From contig OZ244816.1 in the NCBI GenBank assembly GCA_965220255.1, positions 1,010,852-1,074,851 of the forward strand: DNA of 64,000 bases, read 5' to 3'. This DNA is from Dehalococcoidia bacterium. GTDB lineage: Bacteria; Chloroflexota; Dehalococcoidia; Lucifugimonadales; VXLM01. A program made the position numbers and the translations under genes. Each line of letters opens with the position of its first letter. Position 1 is the stretch's first letter. A model generated the notes under the pieces. It saw only the letters and a list, made by a program, of their open reading frames with translations. It ran no database searches and had not been told where the DNA came from. Shown here in pieces: positions 5,604-29,521 of this stretch.

Positions 5604-6476
5604 ATGCCACAAACAACGAGCACAGGAAACCTGGAGAAGGCCCAGAGGACGATGATCGGGCAGATGCTGTACACGACGGAGCACAACGCGCCCGCGATGG
5701 CGCTGGTGACGCACATGAGGCTGCGGCGCGGGGCGTCGAGCGTGGATGTGCCGAAGGCGGGGCAGATGACGGTGTCGGACCTGGTCGAGGGACAGGACAT
5801 CACGGACGAGCAGAGCCTCGGTATGGAGTTCACGACGCTGACCACGTCCGAGGTGGGCGCGAAGGTGGTGGTGACGGACAAGCTGGTGCGGCAGATGCAG
5901 CCGGACGTGTTCAAGGTGATCGGGCGGCAACTCGGCGACGGCATGGCGCGCAAGAAGGACCAAGACGTGATCGCGCTGTACGGGTCGCTGAACGAAGGGA
6001 CTGCACTGGGGGCTGCGGGCGCGACGTTCAACGTCGCCCATGCGGCGGCGGCGTACACGCACGCAGTGGCCAACAAGTTCGGGACGAAGCTCTCGATCGT
6101 CCACCATCCGAACGCACTGTACAGCATCATCAACTCCGGCGCGATTACGCCGGGGGCCAGCGGTCCGGTCGACGCGGGGTGGTCGCGCGACCTGCTCCAG
6201 CGGTTCTTCGCGGGACTCGCGCCGGTGGGCGGAGTGCCGATGTTCCACGACGGCAACATCGAGGTGGACAACGATGGCGACGCGGTGGGCGTGATCGCCG
6301 ACGAGGGCGCGCTCGTCGTGCTGGAGTCGGTGACGATGCGGACGGAGCGTCAGCGGGACGCCTCGCTGCGGGGCACGGAGGTCGTCATCACGGCGGACTA
6401 CGGGGTCTTCGAGCTCGACGACTCTCGCGGCGCGCCGCTCAAGTACGACGCGACCCCGCCGTCGACATCGGAGTAG
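5604..6476 (+). CDS. Major capsid protein, HK97-fold-like (putative)
   Basis: 290 aa, with GAAAGGAG upstream. Composition and layout resemble Phage_capsid/HK97-type coat proteins (e.g. KVVVTDKLVRQM..DVFKVIGRQLGDGMARKKDQDVI). Positioned after a scaffold-like ORF. Recognition by eye only. Confidence 0.55.
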   Translation: MPQTTSTGNLEKAQRTMIGQMLYTTEHNAPAMALVTHMRLRRGASSVDVPKAGQMTVSDLVEGQDITDEQSLGMEFTTLTTSEVGAKVVVTDKLVRQMQPDVFKVIGRQLGDGMARKKDQDVIALYGSLNEGTALGAAGATFNVAHAAAAYTHAVANKFGTKLSIVHHPNALYSIINSGAITPGASGPVDAGWSRDLLQRFFAGLAPVGGVPMFHDGNIEVDNDGDAVGVIADEGALVVLESVTMRTERQRDASLRGTEVVITADYGVFELDDSRGAPLKYDATPPSTSE

Positions 6477-6487
6477 GCACCCCCTCT

Positions 6488-6523
6488 CTGTATCTCTCCC
6501 CCGCCAGCGCGGGGGAGAGATTG
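6488..6523. repeat. Solo hairpin version of the outer arms of the composite repeat
   Basis: ctgtatctctcccc-cgccagcgc-gggggagagattg reproduces the outermost arms of 1-14 and 321-333 with only a 9-nt loop between them. Confidence 0.7.
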
Positions 6524-6592
6524 ATGGGGCTTTTCTCTCCCGCTGAGAGGGTGTCATTGAAAGGGCATCATCCAGCTTCGGAGACGTCTCTG

Positions 6593-6617
6593 GATTCCCG
6601 CTTTCGCGGGAATGACG
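6593..6617. repeat. REP-like hairpin gattcccgctttcgcgggaatgacg
   Basis: Same hairpin family as 14773-14858, 9162-9213 and the variant at 28398-28427. Confidence 0.7.
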
Positions 6618-6730
6618 GTGGTTATGCAAAGGTCTCCGCCGGCAGGGGAGAGACTGATCGGAATTCACAGCAGTTGCTGATACCCGCATGGCCCCGTGTG
6701 CGGGGCAACGTGTTACTCAGGAGGAAATAT

Positions 6731-7108
6731 ATGGACCGGAAGACGCCCGCGACACTGTCGGAAGAATTGGCGAAGCTCGGCTACACGTGGGAGTACCTCG
6801 ACAAGTGGCAGCCGAAGGTCGACATGTACTGGCACGTCGACCAAGTGAACGTCGCGGGTGAGGTGGTCGGGAGGGCGGGCGCGATGCTGCCCAACCTGCC
6901 CGGCCACCCCGACCATCAGGCGAGGTACGCACGGCGAGGCCTGCTGCCGTGGCCGCCGGGCAAAGAGTGCGAGTGCAAGGGCTGTCGCGAGCGGTACGGG
7001 ACCGAGCGCACGGGCCGCAAGTTCATGTCGCCGGATGACGTGGAACGAGAGGTGGCGAGCGACAGGCTGTTTGGGGGTGGGGGCGCGGGTTCCAAAGCCA
7101 AGGAGTAG
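6731..7108 (+). CDS. Hypothetical protein (phage-module ORF)
   Basis: 125 aa. ATG 6731 is preceded by AGGAGGA (6718-6724). It is the only non-repeat part of the 5498-7108 ORF. No function recognised. Confidence 0.5.
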   Translation: MDRKTPATLSEELAKLGYTWEYLDKWQPKVDMYWHVDQVNVAGEVVGRAGAMLPNLPGHPDHQARYARRGLLPWPPGKECECKGCRERYGTERTGRKFMSPDDVEREVASDRLFGGGGAGSKAKE

Positions 7109-7160
7109 CTCTTTTCTATCCACCTCACTATGAATTTCGTTATTATGGACATGACAGGGT

Positions 7161-7189
7161 GTTGACAGCCCAACCACGTGTTCATACAC
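7161..7189 (+). promoter_or_regulatory. Putative promoter of second low-GC island
   Basis: TTGACA (7161-7166), 17-nt spacer, TACACT (7184-7189). Confidence 0.3.
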
Positions 7190-7263
7190 TGATGCACCCA
7201 TGACAAGGTACGGTTCTCATTTGAGGGACTTCGTACCTCCCCTAAAGAAAGAAGATATCACCG

Positions 7264-7671
7264 TTGGCTGAGTCCCTAAGTCAAGTTGTGCCGGTGATGG
7301 TCGCGGCCTTGGTATGTGATACGGCTGCTACTGAGCCCCACTCTAACAAGAAGAGTCTCATTGGCATCTTCGACAGACTGGAGGCGGTTTCTTTCCCGAC
7401 TCAAAGGATACTCTCTCTTTACTTGAAGCTTACTGATGCCGAGGGGCACTATGAGATGGAGGTGCGGTTCGTTCACCTGAACACCGGAAAAGTGTTGGCC
7501 AAGGCCGAAGGCAAACTCAATCACTCTGATCGGTTAACCTCGGCCGAGATGCTTATCCCGTCACTACCTTTTGAGTTTGGTGAGCAGGGGCGGTATGAAT
7601 TCCAAGTCTGGGCCAATTCGATGTTTCTTGGTTCCACAACCATCGACGCCATCCTGCGATCATCGAAATAG
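7264..7671 (+). CDS. Hypothetical small beta-rich protein
   Basis: 135-aa ORF from TTG 7264 (the ATG at 7297 is an alternative start). Low GC. Vaguely resembles uncharacterised DUF-type proteins with the pattern ..CD.A....gK.SLIGIFD.. No function known to me. Confidence 0.45.
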   Translation: MAESLSQVVPVMVAALVCDTAATEPHSNKKSLIGIFDRLEAVSFPTQRILSLYLKLTDAEGHYEMEVRFVHLNTGKVLAKAEGKLNHSDRLTSAEMLIPSLPFEFGEQGRYEFQVWANSMFLGSTTIDAILRSSK

Positions 7672-7682
7672 GAGATTGAACG

Positions 7683-8120
7683 ATGGTAACAACAGATGCT
7701 GAGATAAAGACTCTAGATTCGCCCGCTACCCAATCGGAGGCCAGTGACCATCCCATCATGGGAGAGTGGGGCTCCCTAAACCCTTCCACACCCCCTCTTT
7801 CCGAAGATGATGGAATAGTAGACATGGGTCCGGCATTTGAGGCAACTAGCCTTCTCGGAACATTAAACGATGCACGGCTAAGAGTTCGGCAGCCGTTCCA
7901 AGTGACTATGGCCACAGAGAATGACGACTTCATTGCGGAGGCCGTGGAGATCGACGAGTTCGGCTTTGGCAAGAACCCATCTTCGGCGGTCCGAGATCTG
8001 CAGTTGACGATCGTCGAACTCTACTTCACGCTCAAGAGCGAGGCAGATCGTCTCGGGCCCGATCTCAAGCGCGTGTTCGGCGTGCTCGAATCAAAGCTCG
8101 ATCTCACCCATGACGATTAA
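7683..8120 (+). CDS. HicB-like antitoxin candidate
   Basis: 145 aa. The C-terminal half (FQVTMATENDDFIAEAVEIDEFGFGKNPSSAVRDLQLTIVELYF) resembles the HicB/UPF0150 N-domain pattern. It overlaps the next ORF by 11 nt. Confidence 0.35.
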   Translation: MVTTDAEIKTLDSPATQSEASDHPIMGEWGSLNPSTPPLSEDDGIVDMGPAFEATSLLGTLNDARLRVRQPFQVTMATENDDFIAEAVEIDEFGFGKNPSSAVRDLQLTIVELYFTLKSEADRLGPDLKRVFGVLESKLDLTHDD

Positions 8121-8379
8121 GGCACGGCAGTTTGATCGATTAGTTCAGAAGCTGGGCCTCAAAACCCGAAGCAGCGACCACCTTCTCGCTTGGTTTGAAC
8201 ATGAAGGCAAGATCATCACCAGAACCAAGCGATCTCGCGGTTCCTCCAGTGACCTGCCGATGCAGCACAGCATTCGGCAACAGCTCAAGATGAACGAGCG
8301 AGAGTTCCAAAGCGCCGTCGGCTGTACCCTAACGAAAGAGGACTACCTGAAGATTCTTCGTATGAAGGGGCTGCTGTAG
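8110..8379 (+). CDS. HicA-like toxin candidate
   Basis: 89 aa. FDRLVQKLGLKTRSSDHLLAWFEHEGKIITRTKRS resembles the HicA/YcfA pattern (h..L.k.G...r..gSH). The 11-nt overlap with the upstream ORF is typical of TA pairs. Confidence 0.35.
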   Translation: MTIKARQFDRLVQKLGLKTRSSDHLLAWFEHEGKIITRTKRSRGSSSDLPMQHSIRQQLKMNEREFQSAVGCTLTKEDYLKILRMKGLL

Positions 8380-8395
8380 TCCGGGTTTCCCCGAT

Positions 8396-8424
8396 TTGAC
8401 ATACCAGCACATCCGTCCTATTCT
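8396..8424 (+). promoter_or_regulatory. Putative promoter restarting the phage-like module
   Basis: TTGACA (8396-8401), 17-nt spacer, TATTCT (8419-8424). Confidence 0.3.
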
Positions 8425-8516
8425 TGATTAGTAACCACCCCTGACCGGCACTGAGCGGGTCGGGAGAATAACCGAATACGACAGAGATGCCGGAGCGCGT
8501 CCCAGTTTAGAAAGAG

Positions 8517-8957
8517 TTGGGGCGCGCTTTGATGTTTAACGAAGGGATGATGACGAAGAACTCCGCTGTCATGTCTGCGGCACGGGATCTGTCGGCGGGT
8601 ATGGAGACGGCGTCGGGGCTGTGGGTGCCGGAGGGGTCGGCGGTGGAGATGCCGTATGTGGCGGGGCCGGACGGAGACACGGGCAGAAGTGTGGTCGTAC
8701 ACCGGTTCCGGTTCCACGATCCACGGACGGGACGGAGCCAGGTCTGCCACGTTCCGGCCCATCCCGATGCCGCTCCGGCCGAGATCGAGGACATGGCGGC
8801 GGAGGCTCTCGAGAGTTTTTTGACCGACGCTCACGAGCTGGGTCCGCTGCACCGTCATACGCCGGAGCAGCGCAAGGAGATCGGCGCCGGAATTCGGGAG
8901 TTCCGCGAGTACGCGGCACGGCGACGGCAGAGTGCCATGAACAAGGTCTATTTCTAG
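8517..8957 (+). CDS. Hypothetical protein (phage-module ORF)
   Basis: 146-aa ORF on the module strand with normal (non-Arg/Pro-biased) composition. No function recognised and the start is uncertain. Confidence 0.4.
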   Translation: MGRALMFNEGMMTKNSAVMSAARDLSAGMETASGLWVPEGSAVEMPYVAGPDGDTGRSVVVHRFRFHDPRTGRSQVCHVPAHPDAAPAEIEDMAAEALESFLTDAHELGPLHRHTPEQRKEIGAGIREFREYAARRRQSAMNKVYF

Positions 8958-9011
8958 GACGTTTCACATCATTCCCGCGGAAGAGGACCTTTGCACAACC
9001 TACCCAACGGC

Positions 9012-9146
9012 CTGTCATTCCGAGCGCAGAGAGGAATCTAAGGCGTCCTGAGGGACCTCATTCGGGCCGTTTCAGCTACGGAACTTCACTTGGAGGGCAA
9101 CAACTTTAGATTCCTCATTCCGCTCCGCTTCATTCGGAATGACAGG
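9012..9146. repeat. Short MITE-like hairpin element (gtcattccgagcg...gaatcta arms)
   Basis: Left arm ctgtcattccgagcgcagagaggaatctaagg and right arm ctttagattcctcattccgctccgcttcattcggaatgacagg are inverted. Same arm family as the inner arms of the composite repeat, but with a different short core. Confidence 0.7.
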
Positions 9147-9233
9147 CGCCGGGGTTATGCAGATTCCCGCCCCATATCGTGGTACGGGGTGACGTTCTTT
9201 CGCGGGAATGACGAATTGAGCTGGAGCTTGGCA

Positions 9234-10094
9234 ATGCACCATCGAGAAAGGACATTCAACATGACAGGCACACACGGACGGACACGGGAACAGCTACGCA
9301 AGAGCATCGGGCGGAACTTGATCGGGCACCAGCTGATCGTCTCGGCGGCAACGTCGGGAGGGGACACGTCAGGCCTCATCGACGATACGCTGCTCGGCGG
9401 GGACGATAACTACATCGGGTGGTGGCTCGTCGCGACTTCGTCCGGGGCGAATGCCGGGGAGATACGGCGCGTGTCGGATTACGACTCCGCGACCTCTCGT
9501 TTGAGTTGGACGCGACCGCTGCCGGAAGCAACGGCCGTCAAAGACTCGTACGAGCTGTGGCCTTCCGAGTATCCGCCAGAGGTCATACACGACTACATCA
9601 ACCAGGCCATCGGCGAGGCGGCGGGGCACATCTACGAGCCGGTGGAGGATTTTTCTCTTAATGCGGGCGGGGGGCTGGCACAGTTCACGATACCAGAGGA
9701 CATCGACGCCATCTCGAAGGTGGAGGTCAGGGTTTCTACTGCGTCGCGGTCCGATGTCGATGCGAACACCGCCGTGTGGCGGACGCTGCCACGGCACTTC
9801 TGGGGAATCGACAAGGGGGAATGTGTCTTGACGCTCACGGACGGGGGCAGGCGTCTGGCGGGCGACGCTCCCCTCAAGCTCGTTGGAGGCATGGAGCCGT
9901 CGTCGCTCCTGGCCGACGCCTCGACGACCGTGGTGCCGGACGAGTTCGTTATCGCACGGGCAACGGCGCTGGCACTACTCGCCTCGCCCGACCTGTCGGA
10001 GTCCGGCAGGGAGGCATGTGCAAGGTGGGACGCCCGGACGCGAGAAGCCCGCGCGGCATTCCCGCTGCTGACGAACGTGCGAAGGGTCGGATAG
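9234..10094 (+). CDS. Phage structural protein candidate (adaptor/tail-proximal), hypothetical
   Basis: Start at ATG 9234 or 9261; the upstream part of the 9090 ORF only translates repeats. About 280 aa, on the module strand, immediately precedes the 639-aa ORF. Confidence 0.45.
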   Translation: MHHRERTFNMTGTHGRTREQLRKSIGRNLIGHQLIVSAATSGGDTSGLIDDTLLGGDDNYIGWWLVATSSGANAGEIRRVSDYDSATSRLSWTRPLPEATAVKDSYELWPSEYPPEVIHDYINQAIGEAAGHIYEPVEDFSLNAGGGLAQFTIPEDIDAISKVEVRVSTASRSDVDANTAVWRTLPRHFWGIDKGECVLTLTDGGRRLAGDAPLKLVGGMEPSSLLADASTTVVPDEFVIARATALALLASPDLSESGREACARWDARTREARAAFPLLTNVRRVG

Positions 10095-21837: not shown

Positions 21838-21860
21838 GCGGGCGGCGCTATAGCGTCGGC

Positions 21861-23273
21861 TCAGCGCTTCAATATTCCACGTGCTTGAAGCTGCGTCTTC
21901 AAGTACCCCATATCGCGACTCCCTTTAATCGCGTTGCAGGCGTGGCACAGCAGTTGAAGATTGCCAATGGCGTCTAGGCCGCCTTTAGAGCGCGGAGTAA
22001 TGTGATCTATGGTCAAAACATGGAGGGGTAGCTCATACTCACATCCAACGCACTTCCGTTCTTGACAGGCATACAGAAGTTCCTTATCCGACTGCGGATC
22101 CATAGAACCACGAAGCGCCGGATCGTCGGTGCGCGGGGGCGGTTTGCGAAGTATGCGGGGAGTCCAGTCTTCCCATCCATTGCCGTCATCGTCATTGAAA
22201 GGTATTTGTAACTCGCGTCTTGCCCTGTCGGCCAGAACTTGGGCGGCCTGCGGCACGATGTCGATGCCGATCCACTCGCGCCCAAGTTTCTCGGCGGCAA
22301 TGCACGCGGTTGCGCAGCCGCAGAATGGGTCGAGTACAAGGTCTCCCCTATTCGAGGACGCGCTAATTATGCGCTCCAAGAGCGCAACGGGCTTTTGAGT
22401 TCGCCAGCCGGTACGCTCACGCGCCTGTGAATTGATGACATCTATATCAGTCCAAGAAGATTGAACCGGCCTGCCCTTCATCTCATCCAAGTACCGCTTG
22501 CGCCTGATGCCTCCCCTGCTGGTGAAGTGCAATTTCCCCTCCGCGTCCAACTGCTCCATCGTTTCAAGGGGGACACGCCACAGGGACTTCACTCCCTTGT
22601 ATTCGTACTCATATCCTCCGCCTGCCAAACCCTTCGCCGTAATATCGTAGTCGGCCCAAGCCCGTCCGTCGGGGTCTTTATAGCGGAACCTCGCTCTGTA
22701 CGTCTCCTCATACGGGTTGTACTGAGTATTCCAGGTCCAGCGATTGCCTCTTGTGTAGAAGAGTATTGTGTCCGTATTTGCGCCGAACCGTTTTGAGTCG
22801 CTGTGAGCGGTGGTGCGTTGCCAAGTGATCTCATTCTGAAAACTGCTTCCCCCGAACAGAGCATCCATAATTCCCTTCAAGTAATGGGACGCTGCGGGAT
22901 CGCAGTGCAAATAGATGCTTCCGGTCGGCTTCAATACGCGGTGCAGTTCCAGCAGACGCACGCTCATGAACGTAAGGTAGCCGGCCATACTCTCGCCGTT
23001 TGACAGCTTTGCCCCGTTGATTAGGTGAAACAGCGCCGGGCGACGGTACTCGATCTCGTCGATCCACTCCTGCTTCATGTCGTCCAGAGTCCACACGTCG
23101 TCGAACTCCGCTCCCCTTGCCTCGCTGTCCAGTGGCGCGGCATAGGTCTTGTCCGACTTAAAGGGTGGGTCGAGATAGATGAGGTCCACACACTCGGAGT
23201 TTATCCCGCGCAGGATATCGAGATTGTCGCCCGTGAAGATCGTGCGGGAAGGTACGTTGCAGACGTTGGGCAT
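21861..23273 (-). CDS. DNA methyltransferase (beta-class N4/N6, DPPF) fused to C-terminal HNH nuclease domain
   Basis: Motif IV LIYLDPPF near the N-terminus. SAM-binding motif region VLDPFCGCATACIAAEKLGREWIGIDI near residue 310. C-terminal CVGC..DHITPRSKGGLDAIGNLQLLCHACNAIKG is a canonical HNH. Confidence 0.85.
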   Translation of the reverse strand: MPNVCNVPSRTIFTGDNLDILRGINSECVDLIYLDPPFKSDKTYAAPLDSEARGAEFDDVWTLDDMKQEWIDEIEYRRPALFHLINGAKLSNGESMAGYLTFMSVRLLELHRVLKPTGSIYLHCDPAASHYLKGIMDALFGGSSFQNEITWQRTTAHSDSKRFGANTDTILFYTRGNRWTWNTQYNPYEETYRARFRYKDPDGRAWADYDITAKGLAGGGYEYEYKGVKSLWRVPLETMEQLDAEGKLHFTSRGGIRRKRYLDEMKGRPVQSSWTDIDVINSQARERTGWRTQKPVALLERIISASSNRGDLVLDPFCGCATACIAAEKLGREWIGIDIVPQAAQVLADRARRELQIPFNDDDGNGWEDWTPRILRKPPPRTDDPALRGSMDPQSDKELLYACQERKCVGCEYELPLHVLTIDHITPRSKGGLDAIGNLQLLCHACNAIKGSRDMGYLKTQLQARGILKR

Positions 23274-23449
23274 GAAATGGACTCTTCAGTTACTCGCGTC
23301 AAGGCAGCGGCGCTAGTGCGTTACTGCCATCTTAACTCGTGCCACATGATAGAACGGTTGTTCACGCAGGTCAAGTGTCGTCGCTCCTGCTGGGCAAATG
23401 AAAGTCTTGGGTATGGATTCTATTTATGGATGGAAAAAGACCCTTCACC

Positions 23450-24233: not shown

Positions 24234-25577
24234 TTACGCCGCCTGCAGCCCTCGGTATCCGGGGTGTCCGGGTGCGCCGTACAGGGCGCAGCCGCTGCAC
24301 GAGCGGACCTGTCCGCATGGGGCGGCGGTCGCGGCCTCCGGGCGAGGGGCGGAGACCCTAGCGGGGGCCGGCTGACTTGGCCGCTCCTTGAAGAGTTCGA
24401 GCTTGAGTTGCCGGGCCGGAGTCGCGGCGCTGCCGGGGAACGACACGAAAGGCGTCGCCCGCTTGCGTACGACGCCCATGGCCTGGAGGTCTCGCCACGT
24501 GTCGATCTTGTGGCTCTCGCGCTGCTGGATGATCCGCTCCGCCGAGGTCGGTCCGATGCCCGGCACCCGCAACAGGTCGGTCTTGCTCGCGCCGTTGATG
24601 TCGAGCGGGAACCGGTCGACGTTCGACAGCGCGATGACCGTCTTCGGGTCGTCCTCCAGCGAGAGGAATCCCGCCGGATCGTAGGCGTGGCGTATCTCGT
24701 CGTCCTCGTACCGGTAGATGCGCTTGAGCCAGTCGACCTGGTAGAGGCGGTTCGTCCGCCAGATCGGCGTCGGCTCGTGGTCTTCCAACGGCGTGTAGCG
24801 GATCGGCAGGAACGGGTTGTAGTAGACCCGCTTGAAGTTCCACTGGCCGTAGAGCTGCACCATGCGCTGGTAGACGTCCCAGTCGGACTCGTCGGCTGCG
24901 CCGACGACGAGCTGCGTCACCTGCCCGACCGCGCCTCCTGGATTTCGCTGTCGCAGGAGGCCGTCCATCCAGTGCATCTGCGAGAGCATGTCGCGTTCGA
25001 GGTCCTTCATCTTGCTGAGCCGCCTCATGCCCTCGACCGTCGGCGTTTCGAGGTTCACGGACAGACGGGTTCCCAGCCGGTAGGCCTGCTCGACGTACTC
25101 GTACTCCGTGCCCGGCATGACCTTGAGGTGAATGTACCCCTTGAAGTCGTACTTGTTGCGGACGAGATCGACGACCTTGATGAGCTTCTCCGTCGTCTTG
25201 GAGCCGGAACCCGCCACGCCGGAGCTCAGGAACAGCCCCGCGACGGTGTGCCTCTTCTCCATCTCGTGGAACGTGCGCGCAAGCTCATCTACCTTGAACG
25301 AGAACCTCTTGCGGGGCACCCAGTGACTGTTCGGGCAGAAGTGGCAGTCCATCTTGCAGAAGTCGGTGAACATCACGCGGAACAGGTTGATCGTCTTGCC
25401 GTTCGGCATCGACGCCTTATAGACCCCCGGCGCGGGGTTCTTCTCCGCCCGCGAGTAGGGCGCGCGCACAGCGGCGTAGTCATTCCCCTTTCCCGGACGC
25501 GACAGGACATCGTCCGTAGCCATTCCCGCCAGCTTCTCCAGCTTCTGGTACCTATCCGGGTCGCTCTGTATCAGCAC
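24234..25577 (-). CDS. Radical SAM protein with helix-hairpin-helix (DNA modification/repair-type)
   Basis: CxxxCxxC cluster CKMDCHFC. HhH LLRVPGIGPTSAERIIQQRE near the C-terminus. Extra Cys-containing tail (CGQVRSCSGC). The layout resembles the radical-SAM family usually linked to UDG-like genes; this is from memory and unverified. Confidence 0.75.
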   Translation of the reverse strand: MLIQSDPDRYQKLEKLAGMATDDVLSRPGKGNDYAAVRAPYSRAEKNPAPGVYKASMPNGKTINLFRVMFTDFCKMDCHFCPNSHWVPRKRFSFKVDELARTFHEMEKRHTVAGLFLSSGVAGSGSKTTEKLIKVVDLVRNKYDFKGYIHLKVMPGTEYEYVEQAYRLGTRLSVNLETPTVEGMRRLSKMKDLERDMLSQMHWMDGLLRQRNPGGAVGQVTQLVVGAADESDWDVYQRMVQLYGQWNFKRVYYNPFLPIRYTPLEDHEPTPIWRTNRLYQVDWLKRIYRYEDDEIRHAYDPAGFLSLEDDPKTVIALSNVDRFPLDINGASKTDLLRVPGIGPTSAERIIQQRESHKIDTWRDLQAMGVVRKRATPFVSFPGSAATPARQLKLELFKERPSQPAPARVSAPRPEAATAAPCGQVRSCSGCALYGAPGHPGYRGLQAA

Positions 25578-26915: not shown

Positions 26916-27041
26916 CCAGGGCAATCGCATTTCACACAGGGCCGGGCGTTGAGGGGCCTCCCAACCCACCCGTCTGGACTCCGGCCTTCGCCGGAGTGAC
27001 GATTGCTGGTGTTCCTATCAACTCTAAATGCGATTGCCCTG
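26916..27041. mobile_element. 126-bp MITE with perfect 16-bp terminal inverted repeats
   Basis: TIRs are cagggcaatcgcattt (26916-26931) and aaatgcgattgccctg (27026-27041). Flanked by the 10-bp direct repeat agtgcaaagc (26906-26915 and 27042-27051). Confidence 0.8.
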
Positions 27042-27270
27042 AGTGCAAAGCGCACAATACTTAACCTGATGCTCAGTTATATAGTAGGCTGGAAATGAGT
27101 AGACCGCTGAAAAAACGACCGCAATTGGCGCGGCGTTATGTTGGCGGTGACCACCGTCGTTGCGGGAGTCCTATGAGTACAAGCCACGGACCACAAACCT
27201 ACGGCGATAGAGTCCGATCCCTGCCAGTCCCATCTCGTACAGGCTTTTAACCTTGAGGAGGCAACAATAG

Positions 27271-28257
27271 ATGGAGAACGCCATTTACACCCCGGAAAGC
27301 TACACGGACCGAATACGCCAGGAGCTCGGAAACTGCCTCATCGAGACGAATATTTCTCAAGGTGAGAAGTTCACAGGCAAAGTGCGGGACCGATTCGATC
27401 TTGGAGATCGCATGGCACTCATCACCACCGACCGGCAGAGTGCCTTCGACCGGGTGCTGGCCGCCGTCCCCTTCAAAGGGCAGGCTCTCAACTTAACGAG
27501 CGCATGGTGGTTTGAACAGACCCGCCACATTGTGCCGAACCAGGTCCTATCCATCCCCGATCCAAACGTCACGATTGCCGAAAAGTGTACCGTCTTCCCG
27601 ATTGAGTTCGTGGTGCGTGGATACATCACCGGAACCACGAGCACCTCCCTCTGGACGGTCTACGACAGTGGCCAACGTCAATACTGTGGCATCGATTTGC
27701 CCGACGGCCTGGTTAAAAACCAGAAGCTCTCGACGAATCTCCTCACACCGACCACCAAGGGGGATTATGACCGTCCGATCAGCCCTGACGAGATCGTGTC
27801 CGAGAACTGGATGACGGCCGATGATTGGGAACAATGCAGCCGCATCGCGCAGGAACTCTTCGCTTTCGGTCAATCCAAGGCGGCAGAGCATGGCCTGATT
27901 CTCGTCGATACCAAATATGAGATGGGCCGTGATGAGAACGGTGAGATCCTTCTGATCGACGAGATCCACACTCCTGATTCCAGTCGCTACTGGATCGCCG
28001 ACACTTATGAACAGCGCATGAGGGATGGACAGGAACCCGACAACGTCGACAAAGAATTCCTCCGGCTCTGGTTCACGGAAAACTGCAATCCCTACGAGGA
28101 TGACGTCCTGCCACCGGCGCCGGATGACCTTGTAGTCGAGCTCTCGAGACGCTACATCTACCTTTACGAGACGATCACCGGTCGCTCTTTCGAGTTTCCG
28201 GAGGCGGACCAACCGATCGAGACGCGTTTGAAAAGCAACCTTGAAGGAATCACATGA
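27271..28257 (+). CDS. purC: Phosphoribosylaminoimidazole-succinocarboxamide (SAICAR) synthase
   Basis: GKVRDRFDL..MALITTDRQSAFD..NQVLS..FVVRGYITG.. are hallmark SAICAR synthase motifs (long form, 328 aa). GAGGAGG SD. Confidence 0.9.
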   Translation: MENAIYTPESYTDRIRQELGNCLIETNISQGEKFTGKVRDRFDLGDRMALITTDRQSAFDRVLAAVPFKGQALNLTSAWWFEQTRHIVPNQVLSIPDPNVTIAEKCTVFPIEFVVRGYITGTTSTSLWTVYDSGQRQYCGIDLPDGLVKNQKLSTNLLTPTTKGDYDRPISPDEIVSENWMTADDWEQCSRIAQELFAFGQSKAAEHGLILVDTKYEMGRDENGEILLIDEIHTPDSSRYWIADTYEQRMRDGQEPDNVDKEFLRLWFTENCNPYEDDVLPPAPDDLVVELSRRYIYLYETITGRSFEFPEADQPIETRLKSNLEGIT

Positions 28258-28618
28258 AGGCATACCGAGGGCAATAGACCCCAGGTGATTCTGTTCCCAC
28301 TTCAATTGACGGAAAGCCCTATCCAATAAGCATGAAGTGTAGGCTGACCAGGCGTAAGCGTTCAGAATCGGTGCGAACCCCTCTCTGAGCACAGCACTGT
28401 CATACCCGCGAAAGCGGGTATCCACAGAGGGGTGGCGGGCGTTCATCTCATCAACTCTCAACAGTCACGACCTGGTGCTAAACTTGACCGAGCCAGCGAA
28501 GGACTTTTAAAGTTCTCGCTTATCATCGCAAACACGGTCAACCCTTCTCCGACGAGTTCGTCGCAGGGGCTCGTCAACTTAGCTTGAGCGTTGAGCCAAG
28601 ATTGAATCGAGCGCAAAA

Positions 28619-29266
28619 GTGAAGAAATACATTCTCTTTGACCATGATGGGGTTTTGGTCGATACCGAATTCTGGTACTACAAAGCCGGAGAGCGCGCCC
28701 TGGCTGACATTGGATTTGCCATGGATAGAGATCAATACCTCCGAGACATGATCCAGGGAATGGCCACCTGGGCCCAAGCCAAAGCGGCCGGTATTGATGA
28801 ACAGACCATCAGCAGGCAGCGTGAGGTCCGTAATGTCTATTACCAGGAATACCTGATGACCGAAGACATCGAGATTGACGGCGTCTTGGAAACGCTGGAT
28901 GTGCTCGCAGGTGAGTACAGGATGGGTATCGTTACTACATCCAAACCGGCTGACTTCGCCCTGATACACGAAAAGCGATCCATCCTGGACTATATGGAAT
29001 TCTATTTGGCTAGGGATGACTACAAGCGAGCTAAACCACATCCTGAACCCTATCTGAAAGGACTCCAACGCTTTGGCGCCACTGCCGCTGAAACGGTCGT
29101 TGTTGAAGACTCGGCGAGAGGGCTGAAGTCGGCAATAGCGGCGGGTATTGACTGCATCGTGGTTGCAAACGAGTTCACTGCATCTCAAGATTTGTCCAAG
29201 GCAACTGCAAAGGTCGCTACGTTTAGGGAGTTGCCTTCTGCTATAAGGGGCCTAACAGGCTCATAG
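28619..29266 (+). CDS. HAD-superfamily hydrolase (phosphatase-type)
   Basis: Motif I ILFDHDGVLVDTE, motif III/IV ..KPHPEPYL.. and VVVEDSARGLKSAIAAG. GTG start. Confidence 0.8.
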   Translation: MKKYILFDHDGVLVDTEFWYYKAGERALADIGFAMDRDQYLRDMIQGMATWAQAKAAGIDEQTISRQREVRNVYYQEYLMTEDIEIDGVLETLDVLAGEYRMGIVTTSKPADFALIHEKRSILDYMEFYLARDDYKRAKPHPEPYLKGLQRFGATAAETVVVEDSARGLKSAIAAGIDCIVVANEFTASQDLSKATAKVATFRELPSAIRGLTGS

Positions 29267-29305
29267 TCAGGACCGCGCGCGTTTCCATAAGGAGCGTGTG
29301 GCAGC

Positions 29306-29376
29306 CGTACCTCGCTCGGGTTATGCAAAAAGTGTAAGTGCGATCACGTTCAGTCAGGGGGCGTGGGGCTCATACG
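29306..29376. repeat. ~75-nt low-copy repeat (copy B)
   Basis: See 26730-26802. Confidence 0.75.
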
Positions 29377-29521
29377 GTGATCAAGTGTGGAACCGAAGGG
29401 ATGAAGGGAAGGCGGTCGTGCAGGAAGTAGCAATGGATCAACGGAAAGGGTTGGACCGACGTACTACGGCGCGAAGCATGGTCAGGATGGCCTGTACGTC
29501 GTTGCAAATAACTCGCCCATT

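Follow-up and report, generated by a model that had tools for sequence, protein, structure and literature searches.

Can one gene encode a complete restriction-modification (R-M) system? This question is raised by a gene on the minus strand of a 64,000-nucleotide stretch of contig OZ244816.1 (positions 1,010,852 to 1,074,851) from a Dehalococcoidia bacterium; this whole stretch is referred to below as the window. The gene encodes a DNA methyltransferase (MTase), a target-recognition domain (TRD) and an HNH nuclease domain in one polypeptide, and based on its sequence and that of its relatives we consider the product to be probably a single-chain R-M enzyme following the logic of Types IIC and IIG. 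A one-protein R-M enzyme had been proposed, among other possibilities, in a first-pass annotation of the same DNA, and of these it is the reading with the best support. We infer it from the constrained MTase and HNH sites, the alternative nucleases of relatives, the exchange of TRDs and the lack of partner genes.

The gene is composed of the following features, with residues numbered on the window protein.

21861-23273, minus strand: complete MTase-TRD-linker-HNH gene, 470 amino acids (aa) plus stop codon, based on the open reading frame (ORF) list, Pfam and the ortholog at locus L081
22839-23273, minus strand: conserved N-terminal arm, residues 1-145, near-identical in syntenic alleles, with a ratio of nonsynonymous to synonymous substitution rates (dN/dS) of 0.014
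23160-23171, minus strand: motif IV DPPF, residues 35-38, inside the N-terminal arm
22419-22838, minus strand: variable target-recognition cassette, residues 146-285, with at least three unrelated versions at one syntenic site
22239-22418, minus strand: conserved C-terminal MTase arm, residues 286-345, carrying the motif I variant
22308-22331, minus strand: motif I variant DPFCGCAT, residues 315-322, conserved in alignment A2
22059-22238, minus strand: Pro-rich, poorly ordered linker, residues 346-405, with low predicted local distance difference test (pLDDT) scores and without secondary structure over residues 356-392
21864-22058, minus strand: HNH nuclease domain, residues 406-470, matched by Pfam HNH/HNH_5 and predicted to fold as beta-beta-alpha
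Within the HNH domain: predicted Cys4 zinc site C408/C411/C443/C446 and predicted catalytic residues D423-H424, N438 and N447, based on residue conservation

Pfam searches placed the beta-class family PF01555 (N6_N4_Mtase) over residues 29-345 (E 4.3e-44; 151.5 bits, cutoff 26.7) and the HNH families PF01844 and PF14279 over residues 408-453 (E about 1e-10; 41 bits, cutoffs 21.4 and 27.5, respectively). All NCBIfam matches stayed below threshold; they pointed to adenine MTases of the beta class and, in the C-terminal part, to HNH regions from IscB and Cas9. In PADLOC only Type II and Type III MTase models responded, the MTase_III models with E values down to 3e-34. The translation carries motif IV as IYLDPPF at residues 32-38, VLDPFCGCATACIAAEKLG at residues 313-331, the Pro-rich stretch RKPPPRTDDPALRGSMDP between motif I and the HNH domain, and CVGC...DHITPRSKGG...NLQLLCHACNAIKG at residues 408-451, in which CHACN ends at residue 447. 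Both the motif IV and the complete HNH behind a Pro-rich linker described in the first-pass annotation are therefore present, and both domains score above the Pfam cutoffs. DPPF lies ahead of DPFCGCAT, which is the beta-class motif order. At the domain level, each protein holds one TRD, and the MTase and nuclease domains share one polypeptide. The proposed TRD of about 250 aa in the middle of the protein was also found, but its variable part covers just about 140 aa (residues 146-285, approximately) of the segment of about 275 aa between motifs IV and I, and residues 95-175, approximately, form the conserved MTase core. An exact-sequence look-up of the window protein returned no record.

Both catalytic sites appear to be under constraint. 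In a family alignment of 142 full-length members, DPPF, DPF-GCAT and the HNH residues C408, C411, D423, H424, N438, C443, C446 and N447 were at least 98% conserved; the catalytic His and Asn residues, whose substitution had been considered in the earlier annotation, are intact. Comparison with the L081 ortholog (94% protein identity, about 84% DNA identity) gave an overall dN/dS of 0.031, with values of 0.014-0.041 across five segments, including 0.014 for the N-terminal arm, 0.036 for the TRD and 0.024 for the HNH domain. These low values in every segment indicate strong purifying selection on all modules.

The sequence of motif I had been pointed out as unusual. The variant is indeed present, but it is no peculiarity of the window gene, since DPF[CA]GC[AG]T[AT] was found in 80 of the 88 MTase-homolog ORFs of related loci; DPPF was found in 81 of them. 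In alignment A2, D315, P316, F317, G319, C320 and A321 are invariant and T322 is near-invariant (at least 90%), and the variant aligns with the FxGSGTT of M.MboIIA and of PDB entry 9c3u (described as M.BceJIV). Compared with this canonical loop for binding of S-adenosylmethionine (SAM), the window protein has F-C-G-C-A-T, with the first Gly unchanged, Cys in place of Ser and Ala in place of the second Gly. At this last position A321 is invariant in the HNH subfamily, and Gly occurs in 23 of the 88 homolog ORFs. The unusual motif I thus reads, from these alignments, as a clade signature and probably a mild FxGxG variant rather than a broken site.

A structure model was generated with AlphaFold2 using alignment A3, and its fold was compared with known structures by Foldseek. 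The mean pLDDT was 70, with values of 85-93 over residues 200-260 in the TRD and 36-62 for residues 351-400 in the linker; part of the HNH loop was also low. Secondary structure predicted for the HNH domain consists of strands at residues 420-423 and 440-443 followed by a helix at 444-450, i.e. beta-beta-alpha. The top Foldseek matches were the EcoP15I Mod subunit 4zcf (E 1e-16) and the entry 6k0w, which is listed as a Mod adenine MTase; both align over about 400 columns with the TRD included. The Type II beta-class MTases MboIIA, CcrM and RsrI followed. In the model, the predicted MTase-TRD fold is closest to that of Type III Mod.

Variation within the family is concentrated in the TRD. Among syntenic alleles, residues 1-145 and 286-470 are almost identical and residues 146-285 occur in at least three unrelated versions, and the family as a whole shows nine TRD clusters against essentially one arm cluster. 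Where the arms of two proteins are at least 90% identical, 15% of the pairs have TRDs that are less than 35% identical. The TRD of the window protein shares about 30% identity with those of the syntenic L003 and L004 alleles, and 71-77% with TRDs on proteins with an Mrr_cat nuclease and 58% with one on a T5orf172 protein. At L004, two intact MTase-HNH genes (6452-7975 and 8001-9500) stand in tandem, 25 bp apart, where the window has one; near-identical arms here enclose unrelated TRDs, and the locus would have two specificities. By these comparisons, the central predicted TRD of about 140 aa behaves as a cassette.

The nuclease is exchangeable as well. In relatives whose MTase module is 45-62% identical, Mrr_cat, T5orf172 or HNH occupies the same C-terminal position. 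Mrr-type PD-(D/E)xK versions were found at L023, L030, L039 (Leptolyngbya PCC 7375), L059, L068 and L070, with the catalytic signature GxDxGIDG...QVK conserved at 90% or more, and a T5orf172 version, which we take to be related to GIY-YIG nucleases, at L028. The occurrence of three unrelated, intact nuclease folds at one position argues that DNA cleavage is the selected function. Two Mrr_cat relatives with the motif I sequence DPFCGCGTT, MAFF_RS35095 of Mesorhizobium japonicum MAFF 303099 plasmid pMLa (L082:3989-5713) and gp48 of Streptomyces phage Hippo (L083:2465-4108), are annotated merely as methyltransferases; they belong to cultured organisms or phages and are tractable candidates for experiments. 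A phage origin of the fusion, also suggested in the first-pass annotation, was rejected for the HNH form: Mrr_cat-fused relatives are present in Streptomyces phages, but the best phage matches are 44% identical MTase modules with Mrr_cat and not HNH, and in no phage record does the match reach 80% coverage of the window protein.

The MTase-TRD-HNH proteins, of which the window protein is one, form a family of considerable size that is uncharacterised and clearly modular. At least 120 homologs were found; among the best 120 matches listed, all but one are 455-511 aa long, 59-95% identical and combine PF01555 with HNH, the lone exception being an MTase-only protein of 311 aa. To follow the fusion itself, the last 185 residues, from the motif I arm through the linker to the HNH domain, were searched against a representative library of 1.84 billion proteins. 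This yielded 234 clusters at 50% identity with E values of 1e-30 or lower across the span from motif I to HNH. Nearly all of the top 150 clusters gave a single continuous match over most of the query, and as nothing else could give such a match, these represent fused proteins. Based on record titles, the family occurs mostly in metagenome-assembled genomes (MAGs) of Dehalococcoidia, and also in Arenicellales, Caldilineaceae, Nitrospirales, Latescibacterota, Binatota and various Alphaproteobacteria, a mix of the kind that is typical of marine sponge microbiomes. Source names were looked up for eight homolog clusters and none was given. Several of the family-bearing genomes hold two or three paralogs.

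Two irregular arrangements were noted among the relatives. Protein P0141 (1598 aa) matches the query's motif I arm at three separate places and may be a multi-MTase polyprotein. At L054 and L055 (7437-12044), an insertion of about 1.5 kb with an rve-type integrase interrupts the linker of an MTase-HNH gene, and this 4.6-kb arrangement is duplicated at 99.96% identity in one Latescibacterota genome. It was rejected as a natural split MTase/HNH system, the two parts being in the same frame and separated by an rve-type insertion sequence (IS) in the linker.

No partner gene accompanies the fused gene. The ORF list and Pfam revealed no partner R/S or res gene in the window flanks, and the precomputed Pfam annotation of called genes in about 10 kb around the L081 locus contained no Res, helicase, restriction endonuclease, specificity subunit or other defence gene. 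The absence of a separate endonuclease or specificity gene nearby, as stated in the first-pass annotation, was thereby borne out for both regions. Across 81 loci no shared partner gene was detected; no neighbour family occurs in more than 11 of the 81 and no helicase cluster was seen, the recurring neighbours being an IS1595-family transposase and unrelated metabolic families.

A single-chain R-M enzyme of this kind could act as follows. The beta-class, Mod-like MTase would read a short DNA site through its internal TRD and methylate it with SAM, most likely to N6-methyladenine because motif IV is DPPF, N4-methylcytosine being possible. The same TRD would position the C-terminal HNH domain, on its flexible linker of about 60 aa, for cutting at or near unmethylated sites. 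The dimeric beta-class MTases and Mod2 suggest by analogy that cleavage probably follows dimerisation, in which two HNH sites would be paired for a double-strand break. If dimerisation depends on concentration, it could delay restriction relative to methylation, as has been proposed for Type IIC enzymes in an EcoSal review (PMC12707154). As one TRD would serve both activities, a cassette swap would change the specificity of methylation and of restriction together, and such a joint change would account for the allelic and tandem TRD variants. In this scheme we infer the DNA cleavage, its dependence on methylation, the modified base, the dimerisation and a role in defence or addiction.

Several points weigh against a single-chain R-M enzyme. 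In the searchable literature no experimental evidence was found that any family member methylates or cleaves DNA, and PADLOC and NCBIfam register nothing beyond an MTase in the window protein. A lone HNH domain typically nicks one strand, so that double-strand restriction assumes an oligomerisation step; the structure model is of moderate confidence and, as a monomer, uninformative on dimerisation or HNH docking. How a fused enzyme would avoid cutting newly replicated host DNA is unexplained, especially if only one strand is methylated. Finally, the gene is passed on stably at a single chromosomal position, surrounded by metabolic genes and not in a recognisable defence island.

The recurrence of IS1595-family transposases next to the family raises another explanation, which we regard as possible but unlikely: the MTase-nuclease would mainly be cargo of IS1595-family elements that enforces retention of the element, and the window copy a domesticated or stranded descendant. 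Enforcement could work by post-segregational killing when methylation is diluted, or by cutting of unmethylated 'empty' alleles followed by repair from the occupied copy. In three unrelated MAGs, elements of 2.6 kb were found in which the MTase-nuclease gene is the sole passenger, in two or three copies at 99.9% identity.

L035:7017-9629, L036:7017-9629 and L037:7013-9629: 2.6-kb elements of the first MAG
L044:7042-9654 and L045:7043-9655: 2.6-kb elements of the second MAG
L048:4167-6749 and L053:7044-9626: 2.6-kb elements of the third MAG

These elements open with an IS1595-family transposase gene whose stop codon overlaps the MTase start, and they end in perfect terminal inverted repeats of 22-30 bp with the core GTAGTTAGGGGCTT, or CGGAATAAGTAGTTAGGGGCTT and variants; the L036 element is flanked by an 8-bp target duplication, AAGAGCAA. 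The IS-borne L035 protein carries the TRD type of the window protein at 71% identity. L034, L038 and L048, classed as HNH-type members, likewise fall in the IS1595-transposase neighbour cluster. Moreover, the composition of the gene is atypical at every related locus checked, with a GC deficit of about 2-10 points, and transposon-like mobile R-M units, together with allelic TRD diversity in Type IIG genes, have already been described (PMC2853133). On IS1595 elements with MTase-nuclease passengers, nothing specific was found in the literature. As separate observations, the cargo in L035-L037, L044/L045 and L048/L053 is listed as a single-chain MTase-Mrr_cat gene, and one flank appears to have been exchanged between L035 and L037, which suggests an inversion between these two copies.

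The window copy itself does not look like a current element. Neither a transposase nor inverted-repeat ends were found beside the gene, and the inverted-repeat core GTAGTTAKGGGCTT had zero matches in the whole 64-kb window with up to two mismatches allowed. The statement in the first-pass annotation that there is no mobile-element signature thus holds for this copy, but not for the family, which is tied to IS1595-family elements elsewhere. The gene occupies the same site in at least four genomes, with flanking DNA about 82-88% identical to that of the window, and all syntenic loci found are occupied. No empty site documenting an insertion was found; a search of metagenome contigs with the flanking phosphatase was uninformative, giving just homologs of 57-66% identity in unrelated contexts. 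Furthermore, addiction and defence are compatible, and an element-enforcing accessory differs from a single-chain R-M enzyme in purpose and not in biochemistry. Both could be united in a minimal self-mobilising R-M module of MTase, TRD and interchangeable nuclease, which as sole IS1595 passenger enforces retention or spread of the element, chromosomal copies such as that of the window being domesticated as a TRD-switchable defence; this we put forward as a speculative and rather improbable extension. In such a role the module would be a protein-guided counterpart of TnpB/IscB in IS200/IS605 elements.

The protein could instead be an orphan MTase with a regulatory or protective function, in which HNH plays a non-restriction role, either nicking at methylated sites in repair or recombination or serving as an inactive zinc-finger DNA clamp. 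The missing partner gene and the stable inheritance in a housekeeping-like neighbourhood would fit this, as would the fact that annotation resources register the MTase only and that relatives in public records are named methyltransferases. We nevertheless hold it to be quite improbable. The catalytic D-H...N...N residues are as conserved as the zinc cysteines (at least 98%), with a dN/dS of 0.024 for the HNH domain, and the replacement of HNH in relatives by two other catalytically intact nuclease folds is hard to reconcile with a clamp. Turnover of the TRD, and tandem paralogs that differ in it, are typical where R-M specificity diversifies and not where a regulatory MTase is conserved.

We rate it as very improbable that the MTase-like module is used just for DNA recognition, be it in a nuclease of the Type IV kind that depends on modification or in an HNH homing endonuclease that stands free. 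Type IV enzymes commonly join HNH to domains that read modifications (PMC6765204, PMC12707154), and HNH is a classic homing-endonuclease fold (PMC4081073). Against this, the SAM-binding and catalytic MTase motifs are near-invariant, which argues for an active transferase rather than a reader, and no SRA, EVE, RAMA or wH reader domain was detected in the window protein by the Pfam search. The gene also lies between genes, behind a conserved promoter-like site of its own, instead of inside a host gene, intron or intein. The modification-dependent nicking enzyme offered in the first-pass annotation found no support for the same reason, conserved catalytic and SAM-binding motifs being unexpected in a mere reader domain.

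The GC content of the single-chain gene is 0.558 and its GC content at third codon positions (GC3) 0.665, against 0.63-0.66 and 0.80-0.89 for its neighbours, which places it in the lowest 8% of 1.4-kb segments of the window and agrees with the lower-GC patch noted in the first-pass annotation. A second such patch extends over 27000-29500 (GC 0.51-0.57) and includes an ORF on the plus strand at 27271-28257 with a GC3 of 0.70, so that the GC dip of the MTase-HNH gene is not unique in the window. Downstream lies a convergent gene identified by Pfam as Y_phosphatase3, in accordance with the tyrosine phosphatase described earlier. Upstream, on the same strand, an ORF without Pfam match (the former 'membrane protein') is followed by a radical-SAM gene, with ABC transporter genes and a PhyH gene further out. 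This gene order is syntenic in L003, L004 and L081. The radical-SAM gene, two genes upstream of MTase-HNH (24234-25577, minus strand, 447 aa), combines a radical-SAM domain with helix-hairpin-helix motifs, which suggests a DNA-directed radical-SAM enzyme; it is present in all three syntenic loci and shows no link to the family in non-syntenic loci.

One putative regulatory feature was located upstream of the gene.

23346-23374, minus strand: promoter-like element TTGACC-17-TATCAT, found by consensus scan with 10/12 matches

The element is kept upstream of the L081, L003 and L004 alleles, with TTGAC[CTG] at -35 and TA[TC]CAT at -10, and may serve as a promoter. Between it and the upstream ORF, a stretch of about 70 bp (23376-23445) has no counterpart in L081 or L003 and is a small lineage-specific insertion. 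The direct repeat D4 (21842-21856 and 23307-23321, 13/15 matching) was considered as a target duplication or att site and rejected: it is not kept in L081 or L004, L003 resembles the upstream copy only partially, and the downstream copy belongs to a 10-nt palindrome, CGCTATAGCG, between the convergent genes.

If the proposed activity is correct, the family would provide a compact R-M enzyme of about 50 kDa on a Type III Mod-like scaffold without a motor subunit. As PADLOC and NCBIfam register the MTase only, such genes would be counted as orphan MTases, and restriction systems would be undercounted, notably in Dehalococcoidia and the other family-bearing lineages. The three-way modularity of arms, TRD cassette and nuclease type offers a test bed for how one recognition domain directs both methylation and cleavage, and might supply enzyme engineering with new specificities. 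As a mobile R-M unit that is very small and clean, the IS1595-borne relatives lend themselves to tests of selfish-gene models for the spread of R-M.

Fusing restriction and modification in one enzyme with one TRD is an established concept; the characterised examples found do not include a layout in which a Cys4 HNH stands C-terminal to a beta-class Mod-like MTase with internal TRD. The searchable literature yielded no characterised single-chain enzyme joining a beta-class MTase to HNH or Mrr, and REBASE, which lies outside that search, may list such ORFs as putative fused enzymes. Type IIC enzymes hold restriction and modification in one chain, mostly as an N-terminal PD-(D/E)xK nuclease with a gamma-class MTase (PMC4081073), and Type IIG is defined by a single TRD serving both activities, with several atypical layouts reported, none of them MTase-TRD-HNH (PMC4752239).

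Among nucleases, the HNH domain resembles that of restriction endonucleases with a CxxC...CxxC zinc site (Hpy99I and PacI), of others such as KpnI and MnlI, and of McrA-type enzymes in its beta-beta-alpha-metal core (PMC4081073). These enzymes stand alone, bring recognition domains of their own and have a separate MTase (none for Type IV), whereas the window HNH is expected to borrow recognition from the fused MTase-TRD. The transposon-like R-M units described previously (PMC2853133) share with the relatives the terminal inverted repeats, the 8-bp target duplication and the allelic diversity of TRDs; the 2.6-kb units differ in being minimal, with one IS1595-family transposase and one gene, and in occurring in multiple identical copies, and the window copy lies outside such a unit.

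With Type III Mod subunits (EcoP15I Mod 4zcf, 6k0w and Mbo45V Mod) the protein shares the position of motif IV before motif I and the central variable TRD as an allelic cassette. In contrast to Type III systems, no Res subunit (SF2 ATPase with PD-(D/E)xK nuclease) is found nearby and the nuclease is fused directly, without a motor, so that ATP-driven communication between sites cannot operate. As in the Type IIC/IIG enzymes of the MmeI family, nuclease and MTase stand in one chain for which a single recognition module is expected, the activity being predicted; without a separate restriction endonuclease or S gene, TRD exchange would change both specificities. Typical members of these types carry an N-terminal PD-(D/E)xK nuclease and a gamma-class MTase with NPPY/F/W, unlike the DPPF beta-class MTase and C-terminal HNH of the window protein. 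BtgZI, the one exception listed, in which an alpha-class MTase stands at the N-terminus and a PD-(D/Q)xK variant at the C-terminus (PMC4081073), has the same order of an N-terminal MTase and a C-terminal nuclease, and it differs from the window protein in the class of both modules, which here are a beta-class MTase with internal TRD and a Cys4 HNH nuclease.

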